NCBI GenBank assembly: GCA_001786765.1
Contig: MFTH01000013.1
Coordinates: 19,974 to 83,973, forward strand
Reading direction: 5' to 3'
Length of the DNA stretch: 64,000 nt
DNA from: Candidatus Nomurabacteria bacterium RIFCSPHIGHO2_01_FULL_37_25
GTDB taxonomy: Bacteria > Patescibacteriota > Minisyncoccia > Phycocordibacterales > UBA9973
A program made the position numbers and the translations under genes. Positions 14,405 through 61,126 of the stretch are shown here, in pieces (position 1 is the stretch's first letter; each line of letters opens with the position of its first letter). Below the pieces are notes generated by a model, which worked only from the letters and a program-made list of their open reading frames with translations, searched no databases and was not told where the DNA came from.

Positions 14405-14490
14405 GCGCGGGTGGCGAAACTGGTAGACGCACTACCTTGAGGTGGTAACGCTCGCAAGGGCATGGAGGTTCAAATCCTCTCCCGCGCACC
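14405..14490 (+). tRNA. tRNA-Leu (anticodon GAG), long variable arm, CCA not encoded
   Basis: GCGCGGG acceptor pairing with CCCGCGC. Anticodon loop UU-GAG-GU. Variable hairpin GCTC-GCAA-GGGC. T-loop TTCAAAT. Discriminator A. Confidence 0.8.
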
Positions 14491-19911: not shown

Positions 19912-20079
19912 CCCGTACGAAATAGGACGCGTACGCTTACGCTATATTTGTCCTTTTGGTTAATTGTAATAAATTTTATCATTCTCATAATCTTTTTATT
20001 TTATGCGTCCGCGATTTCGTTCGGGATTGGCATAGATGTAATCTAGCAGAAAATCCAAAAAAATGCAATTACAATACTT

Positions 20080-20222
20080 TGAATCACAAAACTTTAAAAA
20101 TATAACTTTCTGCAAGGGTTTCGAGGCTGGCGAGCCGAGAACTTCAGAATTTTTTAAGCTTCGAAAAATTCGTACCGGAAGAAAGTTGATATTTTAGAGT
20201 TTTGTGATTAACGATATGCTAT
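20080..20222. repeat. Nested-hairpin repeat element, copy 1 (A-type arms aatcacaaaac…gttttgtgatt)
   Basis: The core GGGTTTCGAGGCTG-N-CGAGCCGAGAACTTCAG-R-ATTTTTTAAGCTTCGAAAAAT-Y-CGTACC is shared with three other loci. It is flanked by roughly 30-bp inverted arms. Confidence 0.8.
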
Positions 20223-21742: not shown

Positions 21743-22207
21743 TCAAATTTTTATCATCCTAAAAAGCGCTACTCCCAACGCCACAGAAACATTTAGAGAT
21801 TCTTTTTTACCACGCATTGGGATTTCAGCTATTACGTCGCATTTTTTTAATACATTTTTTGGTATCCCTGTTACTTCCGCGCCGACAATAAAAACATTTT
21901 TATCTTTTAATTTCACTTTCTTATAGTCAATTGATTTTTCATCTTGCTCTACGCCAATAATCAGATATTTTTCTAGCTTTAGTTTTGCAAGAAGTGGAAA
22001 AATATCCTTCTTCTCTTCCCAAAGCACAAACTCTTCTGCTCCTAAAGCAGACTTCGCTAAATCTTTTCTTTTCCTGCCGAATCTATCAAGTGGCGCTGGC
22101 GTGTACCCTGTTAAATAAATTTTATCTATATCCACAGCATCGGCCGTGCGAAACATAGCGCCGACATTTTCTACGCTTCGAATGTTATGCAGTATCAAAA
22201 TATTCAT
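21743..22207 (-). CDS. SpoU/TrmH-family RNA 2'-O-methyltransferase
   Basis: …IGVEQDEK…VFIVGAEVTGIPKNVLKKCDVIAEIPMRGKKESLNVSVALGVALF matches SPOUT motifs. Confidence 0.8.
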   Translation of the reverse strand: MNILILHNIRSVENVGAMFRTADAVDIDKIYLTGYTPAPLDRFGRKRKDLAKSALGAEEFVLWEEKKDIFPLLAKLKLEKYLIIGVEQDEKSIDYKKVKLKDKNVFIVGAEVTGIPKNVLKKCDVIAEIPMRGKKESLNVSVALGVALFRMIKI

Positions 22208-23550
22208 AAATTTAAGAAATTCTTATTACGCATTTTTTTATGATAAGCAATAGCAAATCTATGCGCCTCGCTATTTGCAAATAAAATTTCTCTTTTGTAT
22301 TTTACAGCGAATTCCTCATTACCCATAATGGCTTTGGGCTTATGTCTTTCATCTTTTACCACAGAAACTACAGGAATGCCAAGCTTTAACCTAGATAAAA
22401 TGACCTGCGCGCTGTTTATCTGCGCTGTGCTCCCATCTACGACTATAAGGCTCGGGAAGGGCCATTCTCTATGAGCCAAACGCCTCTCTAGAACTTCACT
22501 AAGCGCTCCTGTGTCATTGGCATTATTTTGTGTTCTTATTTTAAATTTCTTATATTCACTTTTAATTAATTCCCCATCTTCTACCACCGTCATAACCCCC
22601 ACCATATTTTTGCCACCCATATGAGCAATATCATAGGCTTCTATTCTAGAAACAGCGGGCAATATGTTCTCGGAGTCACCACTCCAAAATTCTCCCGAAA
22701 AATTTCTCTGTCCGTCGTCGCCACTCCTACCAAGGGTTCCCTCGAGAACATATTGCCCGCTGTTTTTTATTAATGCAATATCGTTGATGTGTTGCAAAGC
22801 AAAAATTTGTCTTTTTATCTCTCCAGCTTTTTCAAACTCATATTTTTTCACATATTCTTTCATGTCTTTTTTTAGATTTAAAAGAATTTGCTTCTTCTTG
22901 CCAGAAAAGAATAATTTTATATTTCTAATATTTTGCAAATACATTTTTCTATCATTCAAGTCGGGGACTAAATTTATTTGCTTATAAAATTCCATATAAT
23001 TTTTACTTTTTTCGTCTAGAAATGGGAAAATTCTACGAATTATTTTTATTGCCTCGCGAAGTTGTGAACTGCTCGTAAAAGGCCCGAAAACACTATCACC
23101 AGAAACAACAAAATTTCCAGCACTGCGCCCTTCCCCTTCGGGGTGGGACCCTCGCGCATGTAAATTTTGTTGTTTCTGGTTCAGATTCTTCCCTCGAATA
23201 ACAATAACTTTTGGTAACTTTTCCCTAGTGACACAAACATAATTAAAACTTTTATCAGATTTTTCTTTTGTATTATATTTTGGCTGATGTTTTTTTATAA
23301 GATTAGCTTCAAGTATTATAGCCTCCAACACACTGTCAGTAACCTGCCAATCTATTTTATTTGCATAAAAAACCATATCTACGAGAATAGGCCCGCGTGT
23401 TTCTATCAAATCTTTTCCAAGATAACTTTTTACTCTATCCGTAAGTGATGTGGCTTTGCCGATATATAAAATTTCTTTGCCTTTTTTAAAAAAATACACT
23501 CCGGGCTTGTCAGGTAAATTTAATTTTTTTAAATATTTTATATTTATCAT
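22204..23550 (-). CDS. uvrC: Excinuclease ABC subunit C (short form; C-terminal HhH not evident)
   Basis: GIY-YIG motif ([20 protein letters not shown]…RV.SY). UvrBC-interaction region. RNase H-like endonuclease domain ([11 protein letters not shown]). 4-nt overlap with uvrA. Confidence 0.85.
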
Positions 23551-32903: not shown

Positions 32904-33032
32904 ATCACAAAACTCATAAAAATATCAACTTTCTTCCGGTACGGATTTTTTGAAGCTTAAAAAATCCTGAAGTTCTCGGCTCGACAGCCTCGAAACCCCT
33001 GCAGAAAGTTATATTTTTAGGGTTTTGTGATT
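32903..33032. repeat. Nested-hairpin repeat element, copy 2 (A-type arms, inverted orientation)
   Basis: The reverse complement carries aatcacaaaaccctaaaaatataactttctgcaGGGGTTTCGAGGCTGTCGAGCCGAGAACTTCAGGATTTTTTAAGCTTCaAAAAATCCGTACCggaagaaagttgatattt. Lies between the polA stop and the next gene start. Confidence 0.8.
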
Positions 33033-33037
33033 CACGA

Positions 33038-35470
33038 TTATTTAACTTCTCCGAAATTGTTACCAAAACCAGAATGCACTTCGAGAGGAATGTCGGTTTT
33101 ATAATGTAAATATGATCTCTCTAGCACACCGTTCATAGCGTTTTTTATTATTTTATCAGCTTTTGACAATACACTTTCTTCTATTTCATAAACTAATTCA
33201 TCATGAATTTGAAGCACAAGATGAACTTTATCTAAAATTCCCGCCTTTTTAATATCCTCTTCTATATACCTTATGGCAAGCTTGATAATGTCAGCCGTGG
33301 CAGTACCTTGAATCGGCGCATTAGTGGCAGTACGTTCTGCCATATTTTTCAAAAATGGAATTTTAGAATTTATATTTGGGAAATATCTGCGTCTGCCAAA
33401 TAAAGTCTCAGTAAAAGATTTTTCTCTCGCAAATTTCTTTACTTCTTCTAAGTAATTTCGCACTCCCGAGAATTGATTGAAATAATTATCATAAAACTTT
33501 TGCGCTTCCTCGCGTGTATTTTCCCGTCCTCCAGCGTGGCCTCCGAGGTTTTTCCGCAGGGCTGTTACCCCCATACCATAAATTATGCCGAAGTTTATCA
33601 CTTTCGCTTTACGACGCATTTCGCTGTCTACTTTTTCTATCGGCACACCGAAAACGAAAGACGCTACGCCAGCATGCGGGTCTTTTTTCTCACGAAAAAT
33701 CTGCGTCATTTTTTTATCATTAGAGAGCATCGCCGCCACCCGGAGCTCGATCTGGCTGTAATCAAAAGCGCAAAGCTTGTAACCTTTTTGCGCCACAAAA
33801 CCATTTCGAATTCTTTTACCCAATTCTGTCTTTATTGGTAAATTTTGCAAATTTGGATCTTGAGAAGAAAATCTTCCTGTTGTTGAACCATTTTGTAAGA
33901 ATTTTGCATGTAATCTATTGTCAACACCAACCATTTTTGGAATCACATCAATATAAGTAGAGAGTAATTTTTGTAATTCCCTATAAGCAAGTATTTCTTT
34001 TACTATCGGGTTTGTTTCTTCTAATTCTTCTAAAACTGAAACCTTAGTGGAAAAAGAACCGGTAGCATTTTTCTTTTTACCAGACTTCATGCCCATCTTG
34101 CCAAAAAGCACTTCGCTCATTTGTTTGGGTGAGTTGATGTTAAACTCAGTACCTGCCATTTTATAAATTTTATATGTTAATTTATCTAATTCTTTATGAT
34201 ACTCTTGTGAGAGTTTCTCAAAATATTTTTTGTCTATTAAAATTCCATAATCCTCCATCTCTTTTACTATATGCATTATTGGACGTTCTATTTCTTCAAA
34301 AACTTTATCTAGTTTGTCATCCTTTAACTTTTTGAAAATATAAGTGTAAGCAACATCAAATGAATCAGTATTGGCAAACATTAAAATATCTTCTAGTTTT
34401 GGATTTGAAATATCAGAATTTATAAGCCAAAGAGCAATGCTGGCTTCTTGAAGCTTTTGAAGCGAAATTGATTCCTTATTTCCCTCCTGCACCTCACCCG
34501 GCCTTTCGGCCACCCTCTCCTTAGTAAGGAGAGGGGCTGGGGGTGAGGTCTTCTTTTCTCCAAAAAAGCTTTTCAGCCTTGCAAACAAAGAGCGGAATTC
34601 AAAAAGCTGAAAAATTTGTTCTATTTTTTTTAAATCCGCATTTTCCCAAAAAGTTTTTGCAGGCAGAATAAAATTTATCGTTGCGTCTGTCCGAATAGTC
34701 GCCAAAGTTTTAGAAAAAAGCGCTTCTTCTTCATTATTTTTCAAAAGTTCTATTACCCTAGGACTAAAACCAGCTTTTATAAAAGACTCCTCGTCTTTCT
34801 TAATTTTTTTATAAATTTCTTCAACCGCGCCGAAATTTAAAATTAAACTCGCCGCTGTTTTTTCGCCAATTCCTTTGATGCCAATAATATTATCCGACGG
34901 GTCGCCCCGGAGTCCTTTGTAGTCCGGCAAAAATTTCGGCCCGAAACCAAACCGCTCCACAACTTTATTTTCGTCATATAAAATAGTGTCATTGATTCCC
35001 TTCTTCAGGGTGTACACTTGAACTTTTTTGTCATTTATCAATTGCATAGTATCCATATCACCCGAAGCAATGATGATTTTTAAATCATTATTCTGTTTGT
35101 ATTTAGAAACAATTGTTCCGAGCACATCATCTGCCTCAAAGCCTAGAGCGTCATAAATAGGCACATTGAAAGCTTCAAAAATCTGGCGAGATTTTTTTAA
35201 TTGCATAACCAAAGCTTCATCAGTCTTGGCTCGACCAGCCTTGTAAGCGTCATACGCTTCGTGCCGAAAAGTCTTGCCGGGCAAATCATAACAAGCAACA
35301 ATATAATCCGGCTTCAAGTCATCTATAATCTTCATTAGCATTGTGGAAAGACCATACAATGCTCCAGTAGGTTCACCTTTAGATGATAAAAATTCCGGCA
35401 AGGCATGATAAGCGCGATGTATTATTGCATGAGCATCTAGTAATACGAGAGTTTTAGTATCTTTGGACAT
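33038..35470 (-). CDS. polA: DNA polymerase I (5'-3' exonuclease plus polymerase; no obvious 3'-5' exo motifs)
   Basis: N-terminal 5' nuclease (LVLLDAHAIIHRAYHALP…), HhH, and a polymerase domain with DYSQIELR and …QIHDELV… motifs. Contains an in-frame low-complexity insert encoded by a GC-rich palindrome (next feature). Confidence 0.9.
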   Translation of the reverse strand: MSKDTKTLVLLDAHAIIHRAYHALPEFLSSKGEPTGALYGLSTMLMKIIDDLKPDYIVACYDLPGKTFRHEAYDAYKAGRAKTDEALVMQLKKSRQIFEAFNVPIYDALGFEADDVLGTIVSKYKQNNDLKIIIASGDMDTMQLINDKKVQVYTLKKGINDTILYDENKVVERFGFGPKFLPDYKGLRGDPSDNIIGIKGIGEKTAASLILNFGAVEEIYKKIKKDEESFIKAGFSPRVIELLKNNEEEALFSKTLATIRTDATINFILPAKTFWENADLKKIEQIFQLFEFRSLFARLKSFFGEKKTSPPAPLLTKERVAERPGEVQEGNKESISLQKLQEASIALWLINSDISNPKLEDILMFANTDSFDVAYTYIFKKLKDDKLDKVFEEIERPIMHIVKEMEDYGILIDKKYFEKLSQEYHKELDKLTYKIYKMAGTEFNINSPKQMSEVLFGKMGMKSGKKKNATGSFSTKVSVLEELEETNPIVKEILAYRELQKLLSTYIDVIPKMVGVDNRLHAKFLQNGSTTGRFSSQDPNLQNLPIKTELGKRIRNGFVAQKGYKLCAFDYSQIELRVAAMLSNDKKMTQIFREKKDPHAGVASFVFGVPIEKVDSEMRRKAKVINFGIIYGMGVTALRKNLGGHAGGRENTREEAQKFYDNYFNQFSGVRNYLEEVKKFAREKSFTETLFGRRRYFPNINSKIPFLKNMAERTATNAPIQGTATADIIKLAIRYIEEDIKKAGILDKVHLVLQIHDELVYEIEESVLSKADKIIKNAMNGVLERSYLHYKTDIPLEVHSGFGNNFGEVK
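34492..34549. repeat. 58-bp GC-rich nested palindrome inserted in-frame in polA (copy A)
   Basis: cctcacccggcctttcggccaccctctccttagtaaggagaggggctgggggtgaggt. A near-identical copy lies intergenically at 59677-59734. It encodes the …SPPAPLLTKERVAERPGEVQ… linker of PolA. Confidence 0.8.
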
Positions 35471-45995: not shown

Positions 45996-46026
45996 ACCAT
46001 TTTTATTATACTACACCCTTTATCAT

Positions 46027-46161
46027 GAATTACGAAACTCGTCGAAGGCATGTCTTTTTTAGGGGGTTTCGAGGCTGTCGAGCCGAGAACTTCAGGATTT
46101 TTTAAACTTAAAAAAATCCGTACCCTAGAAAAAGACATGCCTAGAAAGAGTTTCGTAATTC
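46027..46161. repeat. Nested-hairpin repeat element, copy 3 (B-type arms gaattacgaaactcgtcgaaggcatgtcttttt … aaaaagacatgcctagaaagagtttcgtaattc)
   Basis: Same conserved core as copies 1, 2 and 4. The right arm supplies the last 7 codons plus the stop of the downstream IMPase-family gene. Confidence 0.8.
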
Positions 46162-46905
46162 AAAGTTTATCAGCTTTTTAATCTGGTCATAAATCATGGC
46201 ATTGCTAGCAATAATTCCCTCTGTGGTAGAGGTTAAAGCCTCACCATTGAAATCAGTAAACTTTCCACCAGCCTCTTCTACTAAAAGCTTCCCGGCAAAT
46301 TCTGGAAATGTATCATAATTAAAAGAAATAGCAAAATCCGCCCTACCACAAGCCACATAAGCGTAATGCACTCCCAGAGAACCGAGGTTCCTCATCACGC
46401 TACTATTTTGCGATAAAATGGAAATGGTTTTTAAAAATTTTTCTCTGTGCGGAGGAACTGCGTATGGACCAATCATAAAAATCATGTCTTGATTGCGCTT
46501 AGAAACATAAACTCTTTTATTATTTAAAAATGTTCCTTTGCCTTTTTCTGCGGTAAATAATTCTTTATTGGAGGGATCATAAACTACCGCAAACTGCGTT
46601 TCTCCTTTATAAAGATGACTTAACACCACCGAATAGTGAGGCATGCCTTGAATAAAATTTATTGTATTACTAATAGGATCAATGATCCAGACATTTTCAT
46701 CTTCAATAAAAATATTGTGCATCTCTTCAGCATAGACTGAATGAGCGCCCGGAAAAGTATTTATCAGATTAGCAAGTTCTGTTTCTATTTCTATATCTTT
46801 CTGCGTCAACCATTGTTTGCTTTTCCCTACATCAAGGGTATGTCCCGCAATAGCCGGAAGTGAGTCCCCAAGCTCAACTATTTTTTTAATTATTTCTTGA
46901 TACAT
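46141..46905 (-). CDS. Inositol monophosphatase family protein (SuhB/ImpA-like)
   Basis: …VWIIDPISNT…; …HSVYAEE…; C-terminal …YAYVACGRADFAI… metal-binding motifs. Confidence 0.8.
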   Translation of the reverse strand: MYQEIIKKIVELGDSLPAIAGHTLDVGKSKQWLTQKDIEIETELANLINTFPGAHSVYAEEMHNIFIEDENVWIIDPISNTINFIQGMPHYSVVLSHLYKGETQFAVVYDPSNKELFTAEKGKGTFLNNKRVYVSKRNQDMIFMIGPYAVPPHREKFLKTISILSQNSSVMRNLGSLGVHYAYVACGRADFAISFNYDTFPEFAGKLLVEEAGGKFTDFNGEALTSTTEGIIASNAMIYDQIKKLINFELRNSF

Positions 46906-57130: not shown

Positions 57131-57311
57131 CCTATTAGAAAGCGACTAAATAATAATTTTACTATTGACCATGCCCCGTAAATTTCTAACGGGATTCATT
57201 AGTCTCATATTATACTATTTTTGTTTAACAAAAAAACTCTTGTAAATAGATGAAAACTTATTAACTCTGTTGATAAGCTGTGGATAAAAATTTTAGATTC
57301 TAAGTCACTTT

Positions 57312-57446
57312 GAATTACAAAACTCGTCGAAGGCATGTCTTTTTTAGGGGGTTTCGAGGCTGACGAGCCGAGAACTTCAGGATTTTTCAAGCTTCGAAAA
57401 ATCCGTACCCTAGAAAAAGACATGCCTAGAAAGAGTTTCGTAATTC
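57312..57446. repeat. Nested-hairpin repeat element, copy 4 (B-type arms), inside the oriC region
   Basis: gaattacaaaactcgtcgaaggcatgtcttttttaGGGGGTTTCGAGGCTGaCGAGCCGAGAACTTCAGGATTTTTcAAGCTTCGAAAAATCCGTACCCtagaaaaagacatgcctagaaagagtttcgtaattc. Confidence 0.8.
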
Positions 57447-57510
57447 ACGACTTAAGTCAGTATAAAAAAAGTAGGCATATCTCACGGTGGAGACACGCCT
57501 GATTGATTGG

Positions 57511-59189: not shown

Positions 59190-59669
59190 ATGAATAAAGA
59201 TGAAATCCAAAATTTAATAAAAGAATTGATAGAAAAAACCACCATTAAACTCCATAAAATTTCTATTTCTGAGGAAAGTCCTACGAATACTTGGGTTTCT
59301 CTTGAGGTTAGCGAACCGCACTTTTTTATGGGTAATGATGGCGAGGCGCTTTATTCATTGAATCATCTTGTTCGCAGGATAATCGAAACTAAAACATTTC
59401 CAAGAAAAAAAGATGAAAACATAAACAACAATATCTTGATTGATATAAACGGTTTTCAAAAAAAGCGTGTGGAAAATATTCGCGCGGTAGCGCATATGAT
59501 GGCAGAGAGAGCAAGGTATTTTAAATCAAGCATAGAAGTTGACCCTATGTCAGCTTTTGAACGCAGGGTTGTGCATGAATTTTTATCTGATGCGACCGAC
59601 CTAAAGACAGAATCAATGGGTTTCGGACCCTCTCGTCGAGTGGTAATAAAATATATTGGCGCAATATAA
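59190..59669 (+). CDS. jag: Jag/KhpB-like RNA-binding protein (KH plus R3H)
   Basis: C-terminal R3H motif (…VEVDPMSAFERRVVHEFLSD…). Canonical position after yidC. Confidence 0.8.
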   Translation: MNKDEIQNLIKELIEKTTIKLHKISISEESPTNTWVSLEVSEPHFFMGNDGEALYSLNHLVRRIIETKTFPRKKDENINNNILIDINGFQKKRVENIRAVAHMMAERARYFKSSIEVDPMSAFERRVVHEFLSDATDLKTESMGFGPSRRVVIKYIGAI

Positions 59670-59676
59670 TTAAGAA

Positions 59677-59734
59677 CCTCACTCCGCCTTTGGCACCCCT
59701 CTCCTTATTAAGGAGAGGGGTCGGGGGTGAGGTG
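59677..59734. repeat. 58-bp GC-rich nested palindrome, copy B (intergenic, between convergent genes)
   Basis: cctcactccgcctttggcacccctctccttattaaggagaggggtcgggggtgaggtg, near-identical to the in-frame copy in polA. Confidence 0.8.
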
Positions 59735-59737
59735 TAG

Positions 59738-61126
59738 TTATTTCAATTCCAGTTTCCACAAAAAAGAATCTTTTTTATTTACAAAAAATAAATAATCTTC
59801 AGCTTCACTCAAGGCCATTTTTATACCATCAATTTCTTCAAATACAATTGCAAAAGGATCTAAAATTATTGTTGCGTTCCCGGTTTTTACATCTATTTTC
59901 CAAAGTTGGTCGCTGAAAGACACTTCCCCTTGATACCAGCTATCTGGATATTCGCCCGGGCTAACAAATTTTGGCACAGCGCAGTAGATAACATCATTTG
60001 CTTTACCCCAAACACATTTCTCTGGCAGAGTTCTTACTCCAAGCAGGTTAAAACTTCTACTGTTTATGTCATATATATACAAAGACAAATTATTGTTGCC
60101 GTAAAGAATCAGCTTTCCATCTGGACTTCCAAGTGTAGTCAATCCATTTATATCGCCTAAAATTTTACTAAAGTTTTTGCCTAAAGAATTTATCGTGTAC
60201 ATATATCCGGGAATATTTGCGGAAGGTTTTGTCGTCAGAGTAATTAAATTATTATTTGGCCAAAATGACAGCCATTCTGTAAAAGGAGAATCAAACACTT
60301 GTATTTTTTTATTGTTTAATAAATTCATAGTTATGCCTATCATATTGCTTCCTGAGTCACTATTACTCTCAAATAAATAGAAAATTTTTAAACCGTCGGG
60401 AGACATACTAATATCTCTGACATTATTAGGTAAGAAAGAGCCCTTAGCTTCATTATTTCCCGTTGTGTCTCCTCCTAATAATTCTTTTGGCAGGTTTCCG
60501 ACAAAAGTTTCTATGGTTTCCTCATCTGCTTTTAGATATCGCATAATAACAGATTCTCCCTTATTTCCAAAATAGGCTTCATACACTCTAGGTATTATCG
60601 TTACTGAAAACTTTCTTTCCTCTATTTTATCCACAAAAGTTTGAAAAATATTTCCAGTTGCTCTGTCCACATATCTTAAAGCAGGCGCGAATTCGGTTTC
60701 TGGCGGGGCTGGTTTAACTGACGCTTTTTTATTTTTTGTTTCCTTTTCTGGTTCTAGAGTATTTTCAATTAGCGGACCTGTTTCTGGCGCCACTATTGGC
60801 ACATCTTTCAACCTTTCTTTATTAAAAACGGTAAATCCCGCAATAGGCATACTTGAAACTCTGACAAGTTTTGCTTCCAGTGTTTCTGTTGTGACAGAAG
60901 GCTCATCTTCTGATATATCAAATGGAGGGGGTACAGGAGGAGGATTTGGTTTGCTTTCTCCAAATGGATTAAATTGTGAAATAAAGTTTGTGCCTGGATT
61001 ATCGTACTTCGGTATATTTGTTATATATCCTTTGAAATATAAAAACCAAAAAACTGCAACCACAATTATTAGCAAGATTATTATTAAAAGTGTAAAATTT
61101 CTTTTTGACATAGTTAATGATTCCAT
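59738..61126 (-). CDS. Membrane-anchored beta-propeller-like protein (PD40/TolB-like repeats)
   Basis: N-terminal TM helix, a Pro-rich linker (PNPPPVPPPF) and repeated …SPDG(K/L).I(F/L)Y… beta-propeller-like units. Confidence 0.45.
   Translation of the reverse strand: MESLTMSKRNFTLLIIILLIIVVAVFWFLYFKGYITNIPKYDNPGTNFISQFNPFGESKPNPPPVPPPFDISEDEPSVTTETLEAKLVRVSSMPIAGFTVFNKERLKDVPIVAPETGPLIENTLEPEKETKNKKASVKPAPPETEFAPALRYVDRATGNIFQTFVDKIEERKFSVTIIPRVYEAYFGNKGESVIMRYLKADEETIETFVGNLPKELLGGDTTGNNEAKGSFLPNNVRDISMSPDGLKIFYLFESNSDSGSNMIGITMNLLNNKKIQVFDSPFTEWLSFWPNNNLITLTTKPSANIPGYMYTINSLGKNFSKILGDINGLTTLGSPDGKLILYGNNNLSLYIYDINSRSFNLLGVRTLPEKCVWGKANDVIYCAVPKFVSPGEYPDSWYQGEVSFSDQLWKIDVKTGNATIILDPFAIVFEEIDGIKMALSEAEDYLFFVNKKDSFLWKLELK

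Follow-up and report, generated by a model that had tools for sequence, protein, structure and literature searches.

The window analysed here, a 64,000-nucleotide stretch of a Candidatus Nomurabacteria metagenome-assembled genome (MAG) from the Rifle aquifer (candidate phyla radiation (CPR)/Patescibacteria), contains two near-identical copies of a GC-rich palindromic element of 58 to 59 nt, one read in frame inside polA and the other lying between two convergent genes. As a DNA repeat, the element is structured and dispersed: relative to orthologues it constitutes an insertion in polA, it is read through in frame, and it recurs nearly unchanged in different phyla. It behaves like the Rickettsia palindromic elements (RPEs), with an unusual cross-phylum range. 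Both copies probably represent a widespread family of mobile DNA palindromes that are very small, GC-rich and non-autonomous; unusual features of this family are its sequence identity across phyla, its modular junction architecture and the re-use, in CPR genomes, of the same protein linkers by several such families.

Position and fold of the two copies

The window spans the origin region of the genome, with dnaA, dnaN and the rnpA-yidD-yidC-jag cluster. With the outer stem taken to include the A and T that prolong it on either side, copy 1 occupies positions 34491..34549 (59 nt, GC 0.64) inside polA, and copy 2 occupies positions 59676..59733 (58 nt, GC 0.61) between two convergent stop codons, in a window with a GC content of 0.368. 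The copies share the same orientation on the plus strand and are identical at 51 of 58 aligned bases. Their 21-nt core, CCTCTCCTTANTAAGGAGAGG, matches exactly two sites in the window with up to three mismatches allowed, none being expected from 100 shuffles; an earlier note, made from the sequence of the window alone, had described two near-identical GC-rich copies at these places, and this description holds. Copy 2 takes up the 68-nt gap that separates the stop codon of an R3H/Jag gene (59190..59669, plus strand) from that of a 462-aa gene (59738..61126, minus strand). The latter gene had been labeled a beta-propeller gene in the note, a label left without support by the lack of any Pfam match. 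No polymorphism of copy 2 was seen: the 68-nt spacing between Jag and the next gene was present in four of four representative loci, which stand for 23 contigs with identical Jag.

Both copies fold strongly. As RNA, copy 1 reaches −40.9/−41.3 kcal/mol (z −5.1/−6.0) and copy 2 −41.2 kcal/mol; across both strands of both copies the energies lie between −37 and −41 kcal/mol with z-scores of −5.1 to −6.0, and none of 200 shuffles equaled them. As DNA, the folds are −22.9 kcal/mol (z −6.5) for copy 1 and −22.5 kcal/mol (z −7.0) for copy 2, and the hairpin stability anticipated in the note is thus confirmed at both levels. The term “nested palindrome” used there does not describe the fold, which is a three-way junction composed of an outer stem (ACCTCACCC/GGGTGAGGT), a main hairpin (CCCTCTCCTTAnTAAGGAGAGGG) and a small, variable side hairpin. 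Since the side hairpin is present on one side only, the otherwise symmetric element gains an orientation. In copy 1 the outer stem is formed by positions 34491-34499 (ACCTCACCC) and 34541-34549 (GGGTGAGGT), the side hairpin by 34500-34511 (GGCCTTTCGGCC) and the main hairpin by 34513-34535 (CCCTCTCCTTAGTAAGGAGAGGG); in copy 2 the corresponding parts are 59676-59684 and 59723-59733, 59686-59694 (GCCTTTGGC), and 59696-59720. The main hairpin of the window copies has 10-12 bp and the form CCCTCTCCTTA-n-TAAGGAGAGGG.

The polA copy is read in frame in an interdomain linker

The polA gene (33038..35470, minus strand) encodes a protein of 810 aa with 5'-nuclease and family-A polymerase domains (Pfam PF02739, PF01367 and PF00476), and 21 public contigs carry the gene in intact, identical form. 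The element supplies 20 codons (34490..34549, minus strand) that translate as TSPPAPLLTKERVAERPGEV, PolA residues 308-327, so that the in-frame read-through between the 5'-nuclease and polymerase domains claimed in the earlier note is correct. Tryptic peptides spanning the insert include VAERPGEVQEGNK and TSPPAPLLTK. In an AlphaFold model of moderate quality, built from a 33-sequence alignment (mean predicted local distance difference test (pLDDT) score 67.6), residues 305-332 form a low-confidence loop (pLDDT <50, approximately 28) between helices 293-303 and 337-350, and the element-coded residues are predicted to be a disordered interdomain linker.

Alignment of 120 PolA orthologues (76-82% identity) shows conservation up to the sequence ...FEFRSLFxRLKxFF and again from KLQEASIALW, while the region between is hypervariable in length and sequence. 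To extend the comparison to DNA, 80 related polA loci were retrieved (1.08 Mb, or 1.14 Mb with the window), and linker DNA was parsed in 70. Approximately eight of these carry short, AT-rich, unstructured linkers (GC 0.21-0.46, ΔG −2 to −18 kcal/mol) that lack the element, identifying the segment in the window as an insertion. Linker palindromes with a ΔG of −30 kcal/mol or below are present in 58 of the 70, the strongest reaching −79 kcal/mol, and at least six sequence families, unrelated to one another, account for them; the family of the window's element occupies the linker in the window itself and at loci L133, L135, L143, L148 and L161/L162. The reading frame through the linker is kept in 81 of 81 Nomurabacteria polA genes, whatever the insert, which argues for plain translation. 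Wherever orthologues have the peptide TSPPAPLL...GEV in common, they have the palindromic DNA in common too; a linker shared at the amino-acid level without the palindrome, named in the earlier note as evidence that would count against an inserted element, was therefore not what these relatives show.

The linker is not the only variable site in this protein. A loop in the 5'-nuclease domain (EADDxLGT...IIIASGDMD) is a second hotspot of insertion in loci L132-L211: a basic 29-residue form is found in 54 of 80 sequences, and the others carry inserts, mostly of 12-17 residues, from several GC-rich families (for example YPHPPSPYIGGGAKGGGG, NPVRSREGSQRPSTSNG and NLTPCPSLDRRGGGER). In two related Nomurabacteria (L148 and L211), the insert in this surface loop belongs to the same family as the window's element and is in frame. 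A possible third site lies downstream of the linker in L139, which reads ...YIFEKISAEGGSASGGKRSDLL... where its relatives read ...YIFEKLKENKLDKVYEEIE....

An element younger, or more homogenised, than polA

The closest comparison is between the window and locus L135, where the elements are identical at 59 of 60 positions while the flanking polA DNA is 60-96% identical per 30-nt bin, approximately 75% on average, the identity falling sharply at the element edges. The junctions also differ: the element is preceded by GEKK and followed by QEGNKESISLQKLQE in the window, and it is preceded by GEKNGKESFGVEH and followed by IKLQE in L135. Judged from these sequences, the element is much younger, or more homogenised, than polA, and the differing junctions together with the identity contrast point to independent insertions. 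In a quick neighbour-joining distance tree of PolA calculated without the linker, cassette families are interleaved and the window's family appears in at least five separate places. As the note had proposed should be checked, presence of the element varies among related polA loci.

Once in place, linker cassettes turn over by other means as well. The polA flanks of L158 and L173 are 92% and 100% identical and yet enclose unrelated linker cassettes, which identifies the linker as a recombination breakpoint. A different event is seen in another palindrome family, where the flanks of L184 and L174 match at 100% and the sole difference is an 84-nt indel with TTCT at its boundaries. Comparison of L184 with L174, L175 and L178 shows that it retains the left palindrome arm without the loop and the right arm; retention of a single arm indicates a hairpin-associated deletion.

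A conserved family across phyla

Public genomes, one per species, were scanned with the exact 19-nt centre of the main hairpin, yielding at least 120 loci. Together with 11 copies in related Nomurabacteria DNA, these answer in the affirmative the question, left by the earlier note, of whether further copies exist; the 1.14 Mb of Nomurabacteria DNA holds 13 hits in all, the window's two included. Among the matches listed, the hosts are (i) Nostocales, namely Nostoc including N. punctiforme, Calothrix, Rivularia, Scytonema, Brasilonema, Richelia and Nodularia; (ii) a few further cyanobacteria; (iii) Ignavibacteria/Melioribacter; (iv) many CPR lineages, namely Nomura-, Falkow-, Moran-, Kerfeld- and Saccharibacteria and Parcubacteria; and (v) single MAGs of other groups. 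The listed matches comprise 138 copies with the exact central hairpin, nearly all with the same outer stem and variable side hairpins. Both outer arms are present in 74 of them, and 60 are half elements. The two-armed copies have no side hairpin in 20 cases, a left one in 18, a right one in 25 and both in 11; an A precedes the element in 64 of the 74 and a T follows it in 62. Most copies are intergenic, and 14 of 134 copies in other genomes lie in open reading frames (ORFs) of at least 200 codons.

Across the family, the architecture is a three- or four-way junction of approximately 45-120 nt (median 59). The outer stem (aACCTCACCC...GGGTGAGGTt), which provides inverted termini of 9-11 bp, and the main hairpin (CCCTCTCC-loop-GGAGAGGG) are conserved in sequence, while the one or two side hairpins keep their pairing and not their sequence. 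Among 26 like-oriented copies, sequence hardly varies in the outer stem or the main hairpin, and the side hairpin shows two-sided changes in 4-11 sequences per pair. There is no strand bias in G.U pairs or folding energy among 43 like-oriented copies, 38 G.U pairs falling on one strand and 37 on the other, which fits a palindrome acting as DNA and not an RNA made from one strand.

Individual genomes display further arrangements of these parts. N. punctiforme (L069) carries the 23-nt main hairpin, and Nostocales copies often have the main hairpin beside other small hairpins, embedded in AT-rich inverted repeats. A cyanobacterial contig (L096, 1809-1900) contains a half element in tandem, in at least three units of 41 nt (ACCTCACCCCAGCCCTCTCCTTAGTAAGGAGAGGGAGCTTT), indicating that the family can also form arrays. 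An Ignavibacteria contig (L071) contains six copies in 8 kb, all in one orientation, along with several other small repeat families, including GTAG-containing palindromes (AACACCGTAGGTGTT) like classical repetitive extragenic palindromic (REP) sequences. Only four loci with the element are on viral contigs, giving no sign of a phage vector, and a blastn search of PLSDB with the consensus element returned two weak hits. A protein-database search with a 73-aa concatenate of four peptide variants gave eight word-sharing candidates, none significant, the word index being limiting.

The arms also bear a resemblance to translation signals. In both main hairpins (34513-34535, 59696-59720) and in the outer stems, the purine-rich arms could pass for strong Shine-Dalgarno sequences (TAAGGAGAGG, GGTGAGGT) and the pyrimidine-rich arms resemble the 3' end of 16S rRNA (CCTCTCCTTA, ACCTCAC), so that in any transcript the element would constitute a sequestered duplex of Shine-Dalgarno-like and anti-Shine-Dalgarno-like strands. 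This resemblance may be a coincidence.

In-frame copies in other genes

Read-through is not confined to polA. The same family is found in frame in the UvrC beta-hairpin that separates the GIY motif from the YIG motif (L206), in RarA, TsaD and PheT of Falkowbacteria, inside the C-terminal sorting domain of the type IX secretion system in Melioribacter, inside a Ser/Thr kinase in Nostoc and inside an inter-domain linker of a polyketide synthase in Rivularia. Among the copies in ORFs of at least 200 codons, reading mostly runs in the PLLxKER(G/V) frame, and a TAA closes one of the three. A Kerfeldbacteria locus (L034) encodes a giant repetitive protein whose ORF extends beyond both ends of the 8-kb locus and contains two intein-like segments (CVTGDTKL...HNFVGNDIVAHNT). 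In the first, the element lies just after the N-terminal splicing motif and is read as LSQPLLTKERSGEV; at the same position in the second is an insert coding for the related peptide LSLSRRGEGEV, which the core search did not match.

Other cassette families of the polA linker are likewise found outside polA in these genomes. Strong local palindromes number 64 in 512 kb (the window plus 20 loci), or 12.5 per 100 kb: 15 are in the polA linker, 23 in other ORFs of at least 150 codons (including those for UvrA, UvrB and UvrC) and 26 outside long ORFs. The window's uvrC (22204..23550, minus strand) contains two palindromes of other families, at 22648-22767 and 23098-23180, both in frame and both strongly folding (DNA z −5.8 and −8.6). 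One of them, with a 23-bp perfect outer stem, is the same cassette as in the PolA linkers of P0018 and P0042, and the other is related to the polA-linker cassette of L198.

The window also holds a separate, AT-richer family of palindromic repeats of 115-137 nt, with four intergenic copies (20078-20214, 32919-33034, 46026-46162 and 57311-57447); one is just after the polA stop, one is upstream of ruvA and one is between dnaA and rnpA. These repeats have 34-nt arms that are 85-88% complementary, an RNA ΔG of down to −67 kcal/mol and the look of MITEs (transposable elements of the miniature inverted-repeat kind); they gave no Rfam match. At 14405-14490, ARAGORN calls a tRNA without assigning its identity and with a two-base “anticodon” (tg). 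With 48 bits it is the weakest Rfam match of the window's four tRNAs, and it may be an unusual tRNA or one with a long variable arm.

Evidence for and against mobility

The hallmarks of transposition were sought around the element. Its terminal inverted repeats (aACCTCACCC / GGGTGAGGTt) are a feature of MITEs, and its flanks, rich in A 5' of the element and in T 3' of it, extend the palindrome and do not form a direct repeat. No parent insertion sequence sharing these termini was encountered, either in the window or across the 120 listed 8-kb loci. A GTAG or CGTC tag is absent from both window copies, the conserved ends in nearly all copies being ACCTCACCC and GGGTGAGGT. The likeness to RPEs and Correia elements proposed in the earlier note accordingly divides into two parts: RPE-like colonisation of coding regions in frame is borne out, and extends to other genes and phyla, while a Correia- or MITE-like mechanism is not, since neither a target-site duplication nor a partner transposase was found.

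Several observations weigh against a family of mobile palindromes. Neither a target-site duplication nor an exact pair of empty and filled sites was found for this family; no transposase, RAYT (REP-associated tyrosine transposase), integrase or reverse transcriptase is present among the window's called genes as judged by Pfam; and clustering of 903 ORFs revealed no protein family enriched beside the 120 listed loci, only generic ones, ABC transporters and kinases among them. Nomurabacteria carry few copies, approximately one per 100 kb, and the host range and copy numbers given by the exact-core scan are those of a sample and not of a census. The scatter of cassettes on the PolA tree could in part reflect homologous recombination in place of repeated insertion, as L158 and L173 illustrate, and the one clean polymorphism, that between L184 and L174 in another family, looks like a deletion and not an insertion. 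Finally, the strong hairpin in approximately 80% of polA linkers suggests that structure may be selected there.

Several other identities were considered and rejected: a ribozyme, there being no conserved unpaired core; an integron attC site, there being no GTTRRRY core; a CRISPR repeat, there being no array; the hairpin of a diversity-generating retroelement, there being no template or variable repeat; and an assembly artefact, as copies lie in complete long-read chromosomes and in long contigs. In the literature searched, the sequence strings of the element turned up in primers and unrelated matches only, and no publication there links Patescibacteria with MITEs or palindromic elements.

Alternative explanations

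The alternative that survives best, though we consider it improbable, is that copy 2 is kept as a terminator or 3'-end mRNA stabiliser for the convergent jag and downstream transcripts and that the polA copy is an accidental duplicate. Copy 2 exactly fills the space between two convergent stops, and on the Ignavibacteria contig L071 the three copies that could be checked against listed ORFs are all at or just after gene ends. The REP elements of E. coli occupy this same 3'-end position and stabilise the upstream mRNA, providing a parallel. The bidirectional terminator to which copy 2 had been likened, however, is not what was found: a scan with a terminator consensus called neither copy, and the tails that follow the stems (GTAGTTAT and CTTCTTTT) contain no U-tract. 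Moreover, the polA copy would end an essential gene midway, and the in-frame copies and the cross-phylum identity would be left unexplained. Such a function is compatible with a mobile palindrome as a secondary, co-opted effect.

Less probable again is that the structure itself, irrespective of the sequence family, is selected at the polA domain boundary as a site where translation pauses while domains fold, an RNase III or other processing site, or an attenuator allowing synthesis of the nuclease part alone. The stable linkers described above, drawn from at least six unrelated families, amount to conservation of structure and not of sequence, and the exchange of cassettes between close relatives leaves a hairpin in place. 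Against this, the approximately eight lineages with short, unstructured linkers (L184, L150, L153, L155, L160, L207 and others) have an intact polA. The same families are also present between genes and in many other proteins, identifying them as dispersed repeats and not as polA-specific devices. Because the 5'-nuclease loop, UvrA, UvrB and UvrC behave in the same way, tolerance of insertion is the simpler reading.

A structured non-coding RNA, either a small RNA or a cis-regulatory one, that is a member or relative of whalefall-1 or RAGATH-10 would account for some of the data, and we regard this as slightly more remote than selection at polA. Whalefall-1 (RF01762) is a 16-sequence motif from a whale-fall metagenome, found by comparative genomics and with no assigned function, that consists of a CUCUCC/GGAGAG hairpin, a variable hairpin and a tail resembling GGGUGAGG; its seed contains such hairpins and the GGGUGAGG tail. 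RAGATH-10 (RF03147), also a comparative-genomics motif, is a multi-hairpin junction closed by CCUCAUCU/GGAUGAGG. Exactly on cyanobacterial copies of the element there are matches to whalefall-1 at 31.1, 28.8 and 25.4 bits (threshold 37) and, on a Nostoc copy, to RAGATH-10 at 22.5 bits (threshold 41.2), and the side hairpin has undergone compensatory changes. These scores are nonetheless below the curated thresholds, no Rfam family reaches its gathering score on the window copies, and the window copies have no match to either motif at E <= 10. The equal use of both strands and the lack of conserved unpaired nucleotides also speak against an RNA, as do the many copies translated in frame inside genes and the large share of half elements. 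Whalefall-1 may instead be a partial glimpse of a related family.

That the palindromes arise locally and de novo by template switching or fold-back synthesis, resembling each other by convergence with no movement between sites, is very improbable and effectively refuted for this family: the arm left behind in L184 shows that local rearrangement at hairpins does occur, but a 19-nt exact core within the same 9-11 bp outer stem at 120 or more loci of different phyla (none being expected in the window) cannot be convergence, and elements with 98% identity lie inside genes with 75% identity.

Comparison with known palindromic repeats

The family of mobile palindromes to which we assign the two copies has its nearest behavioural counterpart in the RPEs, palindromic repeats of several families that are present in frame in unrelated conserved genes, where they encode a short, fold-compatible peptide and leave the gene functional (PMC10969869). 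The palindromes described here are likewise in frame in polA (at two sites), uvrA, uvrB, uvrC, rarA, tsaD, pheT and others. RPEs, however, are approximately 100-150 bp long and occur only in Rickettsia, whereas the element is approximately 59 nt and occurs in Nomurabacteria and other groups, the comparison being one of behaviour and not of sequence. In addition, the element is GC-rich in AT-rich hosts, folds into a multi-hairpin junction and is almost unchanged in several phyla.

REPs, bacterial interspersed mosaic elements (BIMEs) and REPINs are short, GC-rich, imperfect palindromes found after stop codons, non-autonomous and structured on both strands (PMC3116915 and, for part of this description, PMC3733652). 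They share with the element a placement mostly downstream of stops and the formation of larger hairpins by inverted doublets. They differ in that the element has no GTAG/CGTC end tag and no RAYT in the window or near the 120 listed loci, and in that REPs are extragenic by definition and lineage-specific while the element enters coding regions and crosses phyla.

In cyanobacteria, Elhai and co-workers reportedly described in 2008 small dispersed repeats (SDRs) of Nostoc punctiforme and its relatives, hairpin repeats of 21-27 nt with eight consensus sequences that frequently lie inside one another or within mini-transposons and that were proposed as the smallest mobile elements. SDRs have been described as confined to one cyanobacterial subgroup (PMC5861425). 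The nested small hairpins and the 23-nt main hairpin in N. punctiforme resemble them, by description and not by sequence; unlike SDRs, the element is also found in CPR bacteria and Ignavibacteria and in frame in genes. A more distant parallel is provided by the mobile G+C clusters of yeast mitochondria and the “byp” elements derived from them, tiny GC-rich palindromes in very AT-rich genomes that enter each other and also protein genes, without inactivating the latter; no transposase is known for these clusters. They belong to eukaryotic organelles, and ribosomes skip the byps, whereas the preservation of frame in every Nomurabacteria polA gene makes plain read-through likely for the element.

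A model for the spread of the element

The data have led us to propose a model whereby the element acts at the DNA level, symmetrically with respect to the two strands. It would land at A/T-rich sites, mostly just past stop codons and, in gene-dense CPR genomes, also inside genes. Copies within coding regions would survive only where 15-30 extra residues are harmless, as in surface loops and interdomain linkers, and only in stop-free frames; the polA copy would be such a survivor, giving on translation a disordered loop of 20 residues that separates the 5'-nuclease domain from the polymerase domain. Copy 2 would represent the usual REP-like position at gene 3' ends, where it may incidentally protect or end transcripts. 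As a best guess, the ends of the element, folded or in duplex form, would be recognised by an enzyme that is supplied in trans, with the outer stem and the main hairpin serving as recognition features. Spread between lineages would proceed by horizontal transfer followed by recombination, after which recombination and hairpin-promoted deletion would shuffle and erode the cassettes. A co-opted role of the intergenic copies at gene 3' ends is possible, and the frequent occupancy of the polA domain boundary might suggest that a hairpin is selected there, but the data call for neither.

A wider proposal is offered tentatively, and we are inclined to doubt it more than to believe it: that the element represents a previously unrecognised, multi-phylum family of selfish DNA defined by its structure, a 45-120-nt three-way-junction hairpin, which spreads within genomes and from phylum to phylum without a dedicated linked transposase, perhaps by means of host enzymes of replication, repair or DNA uptake. 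At least five sister families would join it as a major, overlooked source of extra loops in CPR housekeeping proteins, with particular linkers, the PolA domain boundary among them, as re-used landing pads.

Colonisation of essential genes in frame, which had been held peculiar to Rickettsia, appears in CPR genomes, which are tiny and gene-dense and were assumed to be nearly free of mobile DNA. The inserts inflate and diversify CPR protein sequences and can mislead alignment, phylogeny and structure prediction; annotation pipelines turn them into recurring pseudo-motifs such as PLLxKERG...GEV. They are at the same time natural markers of recent gene flow among uncultivated lineages. The near base-for-base sharing of the element with cyanobacteria and Ignavibacteria implies a route of horizontal spread and a mobilising activity, and Nostoc, which is genetically tractable and carries many copies, could provide a direct route to the mechanism of mobilisation.

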